DNA of 64,000 bases from Eledone cirrhosa (lineage: Eukaryota). Shown in pieces: positions 4,231 through 49,601 of the stretch. The notes beneath the pieces are model-generated. The model was not told where the DNA came from and searched no databases. It saw only the letters and a program-made list of their open reading frames with translations. Positions within the stretch are counted from its first letter, which is position 1, and every line of letters begins with the position of its first letter. Location of the stretch: assembly GCA_964016885.1 (NCBI GenBank), contig OZ024750.1, positions 45,136,001 through 45,200,000 on the forward strand, in the 5' to 3' direction. Position numbers and translations under genes: made by a program.

Positions 4231-5589
4231 TTAATACTTTTTATAAAGTTAACCTTACTCTATCATTGTTTACTATATTTCAGTGTCTTAAGCCATTGAA
4301 TAGAAAGTATTTACAAACAAAATAGTTTTGACCGTTGTAATAATCTTAGCCCTTTTAACTGAAGCTATTTTGAAACCTACTTACAAAGTACACAGATTTC
4401 AGCAATTACACAAATAATTGGCATACATATCCTATGAGGGTAACACTCAAGAATATATCATAATGTATGGGAGAATACTTCGAAACGTATGGCAGCTCAG
4501 TTTGCATCTTCAATTAAGTCATTTTCAGGAATACATAAAAACTGACAAAAGTTAGATATATGACAAAAACCATATATATGAACTATAGAGTCAGAGACAC
4601 TTTCCATCCAAATACTCAACCAACACACACACAAACACACAGAGACACAATCAACATACACACACATAGATATATATATGAGCAAAATTCACCCACACCA
4701 CACTATATAAAGAAAGAAAAAAGAAAAAAAAGCCATATTTCTGAAAAATCCACTACTTTCAAAATCAGATTCTATATTAAGGGTTGCACAATCTATGAAA
4801 CAATAACATTAATTAATTCCAAACTGGGTTTCTTTGAGCACAACCAGTTTTCTGTTTTCGAAAATAATGTGTATATCATTATGCCGGCACACACGTCCAT
4901 GTTTTGTAAATTTATCGAGCATTGATTAATGTGACTTCTGCAAAATATTAGCAAACTGTGGTACCTCTATATAGTCGTTTGATCAACAAGACATAGCAGC
5001 TAAATCTCTCTGAAATCACACATTCCATCTTAAGAGAATAAGGACATATTATATAAAATGGTTGTAGATAACCTATCACAGAATTACCAAAGTAGGAATG
5101 CTCGATCAGCGAAAATGTATGGCTATACAATGTATCATTAGAAAGGCATGAATGTCTCTACGCTGATAGTCTATTATTACATCGACATTTTATTACAAAT
5201 TACGTTTACTTTCGGTCGGGTAGGAGGAATATGTTATCATTCATGCAGTAAAACAAAAAATGAATAAATAAATAAATGAATAAATAAATAAATATAAATA
5301 ACTCAGCAACAAATACAAAATCAATAGTATGTAGATTTATTTCAGCTAAGTCACAATTGTCTTGCCAAGACAATGTAGATTTGATAATGCCGGCATCTTT
5401 AGCTTGCTGTGATATTAACGTCTTGACTTGAATCGTGGCTATATGTTTCATGACTGCAGGCAATTTCTACCTTCTACGTCATCGAATATTCCTTCATATA
5501 TATATGTATATATATATATATATGTATATATGTATATATATATATATATATATACATATATATATTTATATATATTGTTGATGTAATAG

Positions 5590-14406: not shown

Positions 14407-14807
14407 CTAATTATTATAGCTTAACAACATGTTTCATGATTGAATATTTTTTTCTTGTTAATTTTTTCCCTGATTTATTTTTAAACATTTTCCATTTTGA
14501 ACAATGTACTGTGGTTTCATTGCAAAAAGCGAAATTCTTTATTCAGAAATTAATTGGTTGGATAATTTGTTAGGAGTTTCGGTGCTAAAACTTATATATA
14601 CTCATAACACATATACACATATTCAAATATATACTCACACAGAAACACGTACTTATACACGAATAAAGGTACATGTGCTGTTACATAAGGTTTATATGTT
14701 TATATGTATACATCTCTCTTTCTTACTCTCTCTCTCTCTCTCTTTCTCTCTCTATATATATACATATAAATTATATATAAATATGTATATATGTGTATAT
14801 GTATGTG

Positions 14808-14860
<53 letters not shown>

Positions 14861-14871
<11 letters not shown>

Positions 14872-16807
14872 AATATAGACATAGAATATTCGAAAATATT
14901 CTGTATGTTTATAATAAACATTTTGAAGACCTAATCGCTATAGAATAGAATACGTCACGTATTACAATTAGATTCTCGATAAAAGCAAGGGAAGTAATCT
15001 ACGCGTTTCATTCTCGTTAGAAATCATCAGGACTACATATCCAGTGCTTTTATCGAGAATGACACAGCTAGAGACTTATAGAATACTTAGCTGTGTACAG
15101 GAACTGGTTTGAAAGAGCGGTTGCCGGTCCGGCAGAAATTAGAAATTGGAATAAATGCTCTGAAATAGCGATATATATGTGAATATAGACATAGAATATT
15201 CGAAAATATTCTGTATGTTTATAATAAACATTTTGAAGACCTAATCGCTATAGAATAGAATACGTCACGTATTACAATTAGATTCTCGATAAAAGCAAGG
15301 GAAGTAATCTACGCGTTTCATTCTCGTTAGAAATCATCAGGACTACATATCCAGTGCTTTTATCGAGAATGACACAGCTAGAGACTTATAGAATACTTAG
15401 CTGTGTACAGGAACTGGTTTGAAAGAGCGGTTGCCGGTCCGGCAGAAATTAGAAATTGGAATAAATGCTCTGAAATAGCGATATATATGTGAATATAGAC
15501 ATAGAATATTCGAAAATATTCTGTATGTTTATAATAAACATTTTGAAGACCTAATCGCTATAGAATAGAATACGTCACGTATTACAATTAGATTCTCGAT
15601 AAAAGCAAGGGAAGTAATCTACGCGTTTCATTCTCGTTAGAAATCATCAGGACTACATATCCAGTGCTTTTATCGAGAATGACACAGCTAGAGACTTATA
15701 GAATACTTAGCTGTGTACAGGAACTGGTTTGAAAGAGCGGTTGCCGGTCCGGCAGAAATTAGAAATTGGAATAAATGCTCTGAAATAGCGATATATATGT
15801 GAATATAGACATAGAATATTCGAAAATATTCTGTATGTTTATAATAAACATTTTGAAGACCTAATCGCTATAGAATAGAATACGTCACGTATTACAATTA
15901 GATTCTCGATAAAAGCAAGGGAAGTAATCTACGCGTTTCATTCTCGTTAGAAATCATCAGGACTACATATCCAGTGCTTTTATCGAGAATGACACAGCTA
16001 GAGACTTATAGAATACTTAGCTGTGTACAGGAACTGGTTTGAAAGAGCGGTTGCCGGTCCGGCAGAAATTAGAAATTGGAATAAATGCTCTGAAATAGCG
16101 ATATATATGTGAATATAGACATAGAATATTCGAAAATATTCTGTATGTTTATAATAAACATTTTGAAGACCTAATCGCTATAGAATAGAATACGTCACGT
16201 ATTACAATTAGATTCTCGATAAAAGCAAGGGAAGTAATCTACGCGTTTCATTCTCGTTAGAAATCATCAGGACTACATATCCAGTGCTTTTATCGAGAAT
16301 GACACAGCTAGAGACTTATAGAATACTTAGCTGTGTACAGGAACTGGTTTGAAAGAGCGGTTGCCGGTCCGGCAGAAATTAGAAATTGGAATAAATGCTC
16401 TGAAATAGCGATATATATGTGAATATAGACATAGAATATTCGAAAATATTCTGTATGTTTATAATAAACATTTGGAAGACCTAATCGCTATAGAATAGAA
16501 TACGTCACGTATTACAATTAGATTCTCGATAAAAGCAAGGGAAGTAATCTACGCGTTTCATTCTCGTTAGAAATCATCAGGACTACATATCCAGTGCTTT
16601 TATCGAGAATGACACAGCTAGAGACTTATAGAATACTTAGCTGTGTACAGGAACTGGTTTGAAAGAGCGGTTGCCGGTCCGGCAGAAATTAGAAATTGGA
16701 ATAAATGCTCTGAAATAGCGATATATATGTTTATTATAAACATACAGAATATTTTCGAATATTCTATGTCTATATTCACATATATATCGCTATTTCAGAG
16801 CATTTAT

Positions 16808-16813
<6 letters not shown>
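14861..16813 (-). mobile_element. Tandem array of six 310-bp hammerhead-containing units plus an ~87-bp inverted terminal segment (retrozyme / Penelope-pLTR-like)
   Basis: 'gaatatagac' recurs at 14871, 15181, 15491, 15801, 16111, 16421 (period 310). Units look identical except ttttgaag->tttggaag in unit 6. 16727-16813 is the reverse complement of the unit junction. (TA)n tracts on both sides. Confidence 0.9.
14972..15060 (-). ncRNA. Type I minimal hammerhead ribozyme (repeated at +310 intervals: 15282, 15592, 15902, 16212, 16522)
   Basis: Minus strand GTAGTC-CTGATGA-TTTCT AACG AGAAT-GAAA-CGCG-TA-GATTAC. Stem I GTAGTC/GATTAC; palindromic helix III ACGCGT; predicted GUA cleavage between 15000/14999. 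Distal 16-bp perfect stem 14972-14987/15045-15060. Confidence 0.88.
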
Positions 16814-16849
<36 letters not shown>

Positions 16850-17158
16850 ATTATATATAAATATGTATATGTGTGTATATATATATGCATAAGATAAGTA
16901 TATACGTTCAACAATCTGGCAGGAGGGTATACGTTGCTGACGATAGCTAATAAGCTTGAAACTAGTACAGCGTTCCTTTGTCAGTGTTGAACAAACGAGC
17001 AACGATGGTTGCTAGACTACGGCTTAATGCGGGATGTTTGTTTACAAACACACCGAGCATTATAATAAATGTTCTGTGAATCCATACGCACATGTATATA
17101 TGTGAGCATGTATATACATACTACTGTACGTCTGTATGAACGTATGTACGTGTACATA

Positions 17159-33860: not shown

Positions 33861-33893
33861 CTCCTGAAGAAGGGCTTATGCCCGAAACGTCGA
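33861..33893 (+). ncRNA. Minimal hammerhead ribozyme
   Basis: TC-CTGAAGA-AGGGC TTAT GCCC-GAAA-CG-TC-GA; intact core, GUC triplet, only 2-bp stem I retained. Confidence 0.65.
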
Positions 33894-34037: not shown

Positions 34038-34110
34038 AGGCTTGTACAGGAAGCCATGGCTTCCTGATGATTTCTACCAAATGAAACAGTCCTAGTCCTG
34101 TAGAAGCCTT
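34038..34110 (+). ncRNA. Hammerhead-like motif
   Basis: CTGATGA-TTTCTACCAAAT-GAAA-CAG-TC with distal stem AGGCTT..TACAGGA/TCCTGTA..AAGCCT; proximal stem I damaged. Confidence 0.5.
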
Positions 34111-38719: not shown

Positions 38720-38837
<118 letters not shown>

Positions 38838-39388
38838 CCAAAATAAGGAAAGAATGAGCTATGAATTGAATAAAGTATATATATATATATATATGCATGT
38901 AAGTGTGTGGATATATAAACATATATGTGTGTATGTGTGTGTATGTGTACATATAATTTTTTTTTAAATATTTACCAGTGAATACAGAGAAAACAACAAC
39001 AATAAGAAACAAGACACTAGATACAATAAAACAAACAAAATAGATCAAAATGTCTCCCTTTCATATATTTCTTCGTCTGTTTATTTTCACTTATTATTTT
39101 TGAAAAAAAAAATCTTTGGCCGATAACTCCGATAGCATCGGTGTTATTTTAACACCCAAACCAATAATTTCTCTGATGAATAACTGTCGCTTTTTCTTCT
39201 TCCCAATCTCTCATTCTCTCTCACTCTTTCTTTCTCACTATATCTCTCGGTCGTCTGCTTTCATTCCTTCTCTCTTTCCATTTGATGAAATCTCTGTCTT
39301 TCTTTTATGCTTTCAGGATTTCTTTTATTTGATCCTTCTTTCCTCTTCTCTTTCAAATTTTCTGTCTCCCTCGCTTCGTGTTCCTGTC

Positions 39389-42515: not shown

Positions 42516-42526
42516 TCACAAGAGTC

Positions 42527-43295
42527 AATAATAATTGTTTCTACTCTTGGCACAAGGCCAGCCATTACCCAGTGTATTACTGCTACTTTAATTTATCGAC
42601 CCCGTAAAGATGAAATGCAAAGTTAACCTCGGCGGGATTTGAATTCAGAATGGCAAGGGCCATAACACTATGCGTCAAAGCATGGCGTCCGACCCTCAAC
42701 CGATACTGCCAATCAATGATAATTGTTTCTACTTTTGGCACAAGGCCATCAATTATCCCATTGTATTACTGGTACTTTATTTTATCGACTCCCGTAAAGA
42801 TGAAAGGCAAAGTTAACCTCGGCGGGATTTGAACTGAGAATGGCAAGGGCCGTAACTCTATGCGTCAAAGCATGGCGCCCGACCCTCAAGCGATACTGCC
42901 AATCAATGATAATTGTTTCTACTTTTGGCACAAGGCCAGCAATTAAACCAGTGTATTACTGGTACTTTATTTTATCGACTCCCGTAAAGATGAAAGGCAA
43001 AGTTAACCTCGGCGGGATTTGAACTCAGGCCGCAAAGGGACGTAACTATGCTGGAAAGCATGGCGTCCGACCGTCTACCGATACTGCCAATCCACCGCCA
43101 TACACCCAATCAATAATAATTGTTTCTACTTTTAGGCACAAGGCCAGCAATTACCCAGTGCATTACTGGTACTTTATTTTATCGACCCCGTAAGGATGAA
43201 AGGCAAAGTCAACCTCGGCGGGATTTGAACTCAGATCGTAAAGGGACGTAACTATGCTGGAAAGCATGGTGTCCGACCCTCTACCGATACTGCCA
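42527..43295 (-). mobile_element. Four head-to-tail young family 1 SINEs (~190-bp period)
   Basis: Copies at ~42527, 42715, 42905, 43112. Confidence 0.9.
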
Positions 43296-45992: not shown

Positions 45993-46408
<416 letters not shown>

Positions 46409-46530
46409 TTTATTATACATTAAATATATATATATAGATATATAGAATTGGTGTTGGATGCTTAAAGCGTCCGTATGCAGTAGGCCGTATGAGCACTCGA
46501 TGCTCTCATAGAGCAAAGTATGATATCATT

Positions 46531-49172: not shown

Positions 49173-49601
49173 ATACTTTGGGAGGGTCATGTTGCCAATA
49201 AGAAACACACGCACCAGTTGCTTTCACTTAAATTTATTATATATTTATAAATTTATAAATTTACAAATCTACAAACTTATAAATTTCTGGTTGGTTGGTT
49301 GGTTCCACAACCAGATAGTTGTTTATATATAGTCATAGTCCTTTCGTCACACACTCTGTGACCTCTTCAGTGACTATGACTATATATAAACAACTATCTG
49401 GTTGTGGAACCAACCAACCAACCAGAAATTTATAAGTTTGTAGATTTGTAAATTTATAAATTTATAAATATATAATAAATTGAAGTGAAAGCAACTGGTG
49501 CGTGTGTTTCTTATTGGCAAAATGACCCTCCCAAAGTATAACAATATTGGTTTCAACACACGATTTCAGATAAAGAATCTTGCTAAACAAATTCAGAAAC
49601 G

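Follow-up and report, generated by a model that had tools for sequence, protein, structure and literature searches.

Retrozymes and Penelope-like elements (PLEs) are the described systems closest to the repeat family that we report here. For the retrozymes of coral, mussel and axolotl, cleavage and circularisation of the RNA have been shown, and mobilisation by PLEs together with reverse transcription of circles has been proposed (PMC7229834). A PLE origin of retrozymes is backed by co-occurrence and by homology to the PLE terminal repeat, or pLTR (10.64898/2026.07.22.740005). In the accessible text of both sources, however, the mobilising enzyme of animal retrozymes and the role of circles as templates are proposed, not shown. 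PLEs themselves often insert as an inverted, 5'-truncated copy with a 30-40-bp tail at one end, and the Naiads among them prefer (TA)n (PMC8557442). On AT-rich DNA, which is preferred, purified Poseidon protein nicks the two strands and extends each of them; PLE reverse transcription begins at a pair of internal RNA sites, which delimit the tail of 30-40 nt, and uncleaved RNA is the dominant substrate in vitro (PMC11167929).

How does the Eledone cirrhosa locus compare? It lies in a 64,000-nt stretch of contig OZ024750.1 (hereafter the window) and consists mainly of a tandem array with a period of 310, 6.0 copies and 99% identity. The whole array contains one mismatch, at base 16474 in unit 6, the other five units being identical. 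The unit is 35% GC (107/310) and non-coding, with a longest stop-free frame of 59 codons. The original prediction of six near-identical 310-bp units without a meaningful ORF therefore holds, and so does the array itself as delimited there; what had been overlooked is a second, inverted arm of 87 bp that extends the insertion to the right (Table 1). Both outer ends of the insertion adjoin (TA)n, there is no LTR structure, and the ends coincide with two sites, A and B, that recur throughout the family. A tblastn search with 11 PLE proteins gave no match in the 64-kb window, and no ORF combining reverse transcriptase (RT) with GIY-YIG lies at the array. Given the fixed A/B ends and the locus-specific haplotypes, an assembly artefact is unlikely; copy number is as assembled.

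Table 1. Features of the insertion, in window coordinates, and loci of an older sister family. Unit positions are numbered from the base after the predicted ribozyme cut.
Feature	Position	Strand	Remarks
Left arm, 6.03 tandem 310-nt units	14861..16730	- (ribozyme sense)	Outer (RNA 3') end at site A, unit position 139, the exact base being ambiguous within TA microhomology
Right arm, 87-bp inverted copy of unit positions 79-165	16727..16813	+	Outer end at site B, position 165
Head-to-head junction, 4-nt microhomology common to both arms	16727..16730	.	
Left flank, (TA)n target microsatellite, 48 nt	14813..14860	.	
Right flank, (TA)n target microsatellite, 29 nt	16814..16842	.	
Type I hammerhead 1 (stem I, core, stem II with U.U base, palindromic helix III)	14994..15036	-	Predicted cut 15000/14999
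Hammerhead 1 with enclosing perfect 16-bp distal stem	14972..15060	-	15045-15060 pairs with 14972-14987; every 310 bp
Hammerhead 2	15304..15346	-	
Hammerhead 3	15614..15656	-	
Hammerhead 4	15924..15966	-	
Hammerhead 5	16234..16276	-	
Hammerhead 6	16544..16586	-	
Sister-family loci	L132:150-645, L082:2438-2865, L197:8170-8985, L223-L252		87-96% to the query

Several smaller features of the window concern its tandem and microsatellite content. A 38-bp imperfect microsatellite occurs on both sides of the insertion (14753-14790 and 16833-16870), not flush with its ends, and may be either an old duplication or what is left of a long target-site duplication that has degraded. A 38-bp match (82%) to the unit near positions 101-138 lies at 38808-38845 and is possibly an old relic. 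A tandem of 190-206 bp with about 4 copies occupies 42525-43295, and an 89-bp tandem with a CTGATGA motif lies at 46231-46409.

Each unit carries a predicted hammerhead ribozyme on the minus strand. CUGAUGA cores start at 15030, 15340, 15650, 15960, 16270 and 16580, and each is followed by GAAA, helix III ACGCGU and a GUA triplet. The invariant core, the NUH triplet and stems I-III of a type I hammerhead are all present. Stem I has 6 bp (one of them G-U), stem II has 4 bp above a U.U mismatch that stands in place of the canonical G10.1-C11.1 closing pair, and the palindromic helix III has 2 bp. All six of the hammerheads that had been predicted, with core, 6-bp stem I, 16-bp distal stem, ACGCGU and GUA, were found. 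A type I descriptor matches the unit and 0/5000 dinucleotide shuffles. The distal stem is perfect, and the fold that includes it (computed on unit 2) has z = -5.4, matched by 0/200 shuffles; the 50-nt core by itself is of ordinary stability (z = -0.34). Comparison with Rfam returned no hammerhead at the gathering score, nor at E up to 10.

Is such a ribozyme likely to work? When two ribozyme segments are cofolded, the predicted structure is a double hammerhead whose helix III is intermolecular and 6 bp long; metazoan type I hammerheads have been described as working in this dimer mode (PMC4209133). The U.U base of helix II also occurs in axolotl HHR_Amex2, which cleaves, and does so better as a dimer (PMC7229834), and the variant 287T>A restores the stem II base pair in 14 insertions. 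Of the Xenopus retrozyme dimers tested, 8/9 did not cleave (10.64898/2026.07.22.740005). Conservation of the core is uninformative, as 0/29 fixed sites and 3/83 singletons fall on its 11 positions. We consider the ribozyme likely to be active in vivo.

Hammerhead-like cores of other families also occur in the window, at 33864 (+), 34064 (+), 31989 (-), 47414 (-), 49370 (-) and 57763 (-). The core at 34064 has the U.U type of stem II found in the 310-bp unit and resembles two-armed elements at four other loci (L120, L122, L211 and L218); over positions 226-305 these elements match the unit at about 74%. At 49310-49400, a near-perfect hairpin of about 30 bp surrounds a hammerhead-like core (z = -14.4), and this family recurs in L113, L194 and L210.

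The unit belongs to a large and young family. We searched the 3.0-Gb assembly with exact sequence patterns, for which reversed-pattern controls gave 0 matches. The core haplotype of the window has 4,054 exact matches genome-wide, and a 35-mer outside the core has 18,537, so the family comprises at least 18,537 units, exact patterns missing copies with a second change. These units span about 5.7 Mb (18,537 x 310 bp), arranged as long palindromes. Two kinds of (TA)n junction have 438 and 864 exact matches. The first 99 matches of the 35-mer correspond to 13 insertions, which, extrapolated from one contig, suggests a family of about 1,400-2,400 insertions. Singleton variants amount to 0.038% per base. 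The retrozyme identity and recent origin that had been proposed are thus borne out, as are the dispersed arrays expected elsewhere in the genome, and this is almost certainly a mobile family of retrozyme type.

We analysed 90 insertions: the window locus, 10 chosen by the core, 41 by the A end and 38 by the B end. Alignments below 95% identity were excluded, L158 and L178 were used only for reading far ends and are not counted, and L179-L187, picked for their variants, stand outside the 90. Two arms in head-to-head orientation were found in 76/90 insertions and a single arm in 14/90; none was tail-to-tail. Outer ends fall at two sites about 30 nt apart, site A at about 128-139 (blurred by TA microhomology) and site B at about 163-170, mostly 165. 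Where both ends of a two-armed insertion can be read, A is paired with B in 73/74 cases, with no AA and no BB; the single exception has an end called at 155, just outside the B bin. Selection fixed one end in 79/90 insertions, and the free test is therefore the opposite end. This gave A/B pairing in 30/31 insertions selected by A, in 33/33 selected by B and in 10/10 in which neither end was selected. Outer ends lie within (TA)n in 158/162 cases (19/21 in the unselected set). A putative target-site duplication is visible in one informative case (L032, about 44 bp), (TA)n obscuring the others, including the window locus.

The inner ends of the arms behave differently. The arms have median lengths of 3.2 and 4.2 units, A arms being no longer or shorter than B arms, and inner ends are spread round the unit. 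Only 3/148 lie within 5 nt of the ribozyme cut, compared with 4.8 expected, and we reject priming at the cut. These results support priming at two fixed internal sites, A and B. The inner ends of paired arms are independent of each other (7/74 within 15 nt, 7.4 expected), and they are joined mostly by 0-5 nt of overlap or microhomology or by short insertions. In one case (L185:589-2106 and 4318-4931), neighbouring insertions have the same inner junction and haplotype and are probably a local duplication.

Could the inversion arise without two independent primings? Fold-back self-priming on the antisense template has been proposed for PLEs, and inverted PLE junctions with palindromes have been described (PMC3846280). 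However, the place where one arm stops on the inside bears no relation to that of the other, singletons are private to one arm, and the outer ends differ, one being A and the other B. We therefore reject fold-back, which we regard as extremely improbable.

Which machinery leaves ends of this kind? The genome has more than 10,000 GIY-YIG candidates, among them a young, intact PLE family (L209-L222) of about 4.6 kb with 784-aa frames and many 98%-identical copies, tandem and inverted. RT was recognised by Pfam in one member (L190), and a CxxC linker lies ahead of the endonuclease motif; by the description in PMC8557442 the family appears Neptune-like. Its copies stop in (TA)n at either of two sites that lie about 38 nt from each other. 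As an in-genome control, these ends are paired A/B in 8/8 copies with both ends called (14 fetched). The end geometry of the retrozyme is that of a real PLE in the same genome, and it therefore points to PLE-type two-site priming. We conclude that PLE machinery very probably wrote these insertions.

Several copies of the 784-aa family have an overlapping upstream frame of 455 aa, and a pattern search of the family's termini (L209-L222) found no canonical hammerhead. Further long PLE frames occur in L111 (938 aa), L112 (844 aa) and L113 (1096 aa); L111 and L112 are 97.7% identical and so represent another young PLE family.

The original prediction mentioned that Penelope pLTRs carry the same motif; the end footprint, which it had not noticed, is that of PLEs. 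A search of 83 fetched PLE loci, some overlapping and a small sample of the GIY-YIG candidates, revealed no autonomous PLE whose pLTR is homologous to the unit. Three loci (L082, L132 and L197) that seemed to be partner PLEs with a pLTR about 78% like unit positions 59-196 were rejected, as they contain separate insertions of an older sister family that lie in (TA)n beside PLE ends or nearby. This sister family has a 316-nt unit that is about 78% alike over positions 59-196. It is two-armed, its end sites are comparable to A and B, and its arms are short, up to about 1.5 units. In the 30 sister loci compared, an ORF adjoins the query locus only. The likeness of positions 59-196 in a two-armed sister family with comparable ends suggests that this block is the RT-loading element.

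The form of the template has to be read from variants within arrays. Scored at sites covered at least 3 times, these comprise 149 fixed, 97 singleton and 21 intermediate-frequency calls, several of the 21 being alternative alignment placements of one indel. Among arrays of at least 3 units, 69/76 are homogeneous, with fixed variants and singletons only, and there are 31 haplotypes overall. The window locus has the commonest haplotype (21/76), which says nothing about the form of the template. In L061, 88A>T is present in 24/24 units of both arms; genome-wide it occurs 46 times at 5 loci, and 145T>C occurs 20 times at 6 loci, both essentially in whole arrays or in single units. Homogeneous arrays across 31 haplotypes point to a single-unit bottleneck at most insertions, and the seamless unit junctions favour a ligated circle over template jumping. 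We lean towards the circle as the main template.

Satellite-like growth is one alternative. Here, a short two-armed insertion of PLE type would have had its arms extended later at the DNA level by unequal exchange, and local amplification of tandems has been proposed for retrozymes (10.64898/2026.07.22.740005). The short arms of the older sister family are in keeping with this, as are the repeated variant blocks of the longest arrays (L042, L053 and L146), which look partly duplicated later. However, unequal exchange should spread variants over subsets of units, and singletons outnumber intermediate-frequency calls; moreover, arrays less than 0.04% divergent are often longer than 10 units. We judge this origin very unlikely.

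A cleaved linear monomer could also impose a monomer bottleneck if the RT jumped repeatedly from its 5' end to the 3' end of the same or another molecule. Jumps between molecules would fit the switches of haplotype block in L152 and L183, yet they should produce mostly mosaic arrays, which is not what the homogeneous majority shows. Jumping also predicts traces at the cut, where inner ends are not enriched and unit-to-unit indels do not pile up; insertions near position 3 are fixed across arrays. We give this route little credence.

The circle is not the only template that these arrays call for, since 7/76 are mosaic. In L170 and L051 the haplotypes, read inwards from the outer ends, follow one and the same order in both arms. 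This is impossible from a monomer circle, so multimeric templates must also have been used unless a secondary event intervened. In L170:2109-8501 either arm reads two units of one subfamily before it changes to another, the change falling on the same monomer in both; this would be explained if the linear template was itself mosaic, or if an older palindrome underwent RNA-templated repair. In L152 and L173 the arms differ from each other, and in L183 the haplotype switches after 17 units. L158 and L053 form one array of about 47 units in which three monomer types are mixed irregularly; a block of seven units is repeated in it, which suggests that duplication followed later. A periodicity expected of dimer or multimer circles is not established: the spacings of 6 units in L186 and of 7 units in L146 are compatible with such circles or with later duplication, whereas L179 does not fit. 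The several rounds of copying on a circular RNA of about 310 nt that had been predicted are thus favoured by the homogeneous arrays, while the mosaics need multimeric templates too.

Do the mosaics instead reveal the usual template? With the same two-site priming by a PLE, the RT might copy mainly long, uncleaved linear transcripts of arrays, circles being rare or unnecessary. The mosaic order common to both arms in L170 and L051 fits such transcripts, as do the in vitro dominance of unprocessed RNA as a PLE substrate (PMC11167929) and a ribozyme that looks weak, with its U.U pair and 2-bp helix III. Moreover, most source arrays are homogeneous, and their daughters would be homogeneous too. 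This explanation nevertheless leaves unexplained the fixation of 31 haplotypes over whole arrays. For three arrays in which rare variants are fixed (L061, L069 and L187), no linear parent of the right haplotype and length was found elsewhere in the assembly, although such parents may be unassembled or lost. A further test compares the two arms. Where the two arms both reach a given monomer index, 62,338 bases in all (L053, L042, L162 and L077 left out), 1 low-count variant is common to both and 50 calls are private to one arm. If parents were as variable as present arrays, about 24 inherited singletons (62,338 x 3.8e-4) should be shared between arms, although few are also expected if singletons are post-insertion changes or assembly errors. 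We consider linear transcripts unlikely as the main template, while giving them some weight.

Base changes offer a hint about the RNA stage. In the ribozyme sense, fixed sites have A>G and T>C changes in a ratio of 9:4, compared with 6:14 among singletons (p = 0.038, post hoc). Changes at A20 and A276, both in stems, recur on several backgrounds, and A276 lies in a UAG in stem I. The A>G excess and the recurrence fit editing of an RNA intermediate, a weak signal recognised post hoc.

Taken together, we find it fairly probable that the family is a non-LTR retrozyme whose two head-to-head arms, with PLE-type ends in (TA)n, come from a PLE enzyme copying 310-nt RNA, mostly circles, over several rounds. 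First, arrays would be transcribed in the ribozyme sense. Neighbouring hammerheads are predicted to cleave as dimers through the palindromic helix III, giving 310-nt monomers that a host ligase would circularise. A PLE protein with RT and GIY-YIG domains, acting in trans, would then nick both strands of (TA)n, as the ends suggest, and cDNA would start at the internal RNA sites, at A on one strand and at B on the other. To judge from the haplotypes, each RT would stop at random after as many as about 20 rounds, the median arm having 3-4 units, with occasional template switches and some multimeric templates. Finally, the arms are joined at their inner ends, as seen in the junctions. Within this scheme, a more specific version, twin rolling-circle retrotransposition, is conceivable and somewhat short of probable: a Penelope RT dimer would engage one circle at the two fixed sites and extend both arms by strand displacement over many turns. 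If this version is true, edits in one RNA molecule would become fixed in every unit of both arms.

LINE-1 twin priming offers a related precedent, in which second-strand priming produces an inverted 5' part joined by microhomology. The template there is a linear polyA RNA, and the internal site to which the second primer anneals varies. The Eledone family differs in lacking polyA, in starting at two fixed sites and in having multimeric arms on both sides.

Why does this family matter? It yields predictions at the nucleotide level, namely that copying starts at two sites, targets (TA)n and goes on for several rounds, and because the same genome encodes candidate intact PLE proteins, these are directly testable with the existing PLE assay in vitro (PMC11167929). 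It also allows the inverted-repeat-plus-tail structure of PLEs to be read as two independent primings. In the main texts of the accessible literature searched, we found no description of two-armed retrozyme arrays with PLE tails.

The family resembles EN+ PLEs (Poseidon PAc, PMC11167929; Naiad/Neptune, PMC8557442; Adineta Penelope, PMC3846280) in several ways: a 5'-truncated copy is inverted, one end bears a tail of 30-40 nt, the target is (TA)n, RT starts at two internal sites, and the repeat contains a hammerhead. Unlike these elements as described there, it has no ORF, and both of its arms are multi-unit concatemers of a 310-nt monomer, whereas the inverted arms of EN+ PLEs are parts of one element. 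The non-autonomous Chlamys PLEs such as MRC1 are algal, have 3' similarity with autonomous partners and, in the accessible account (PMC8557442), belong to a clade without canonical hammerheads. Xenopus retrozymes share pLTR homology (10.64898/2026.07.22.740005), which was not found for the Eledone unit in the 83 PLE loci. The family also resembles the metazoan non-LTR retrozymes of coral, mussel, axolotl and newt (satellite 2), which have tandem, low-GC units of about 300 bp with one type I hammerhead each, no ORF and thousands of dispersed copies (PMC7229834). In all testable features the Eledone family is a non-LTR retrozyme, except for the U.U pair, which has precedent. Expression and circles have been shown for the metazoan retrozymes (PMC7229834) and are putative in the Eledone family. 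What sets it apart from the retrozymes as described in the accessible text of PMC7229834 and 10.64898/2026.07.22.740005 is its organisation in two-armed, head-to-head arrays with fixed priming sites.
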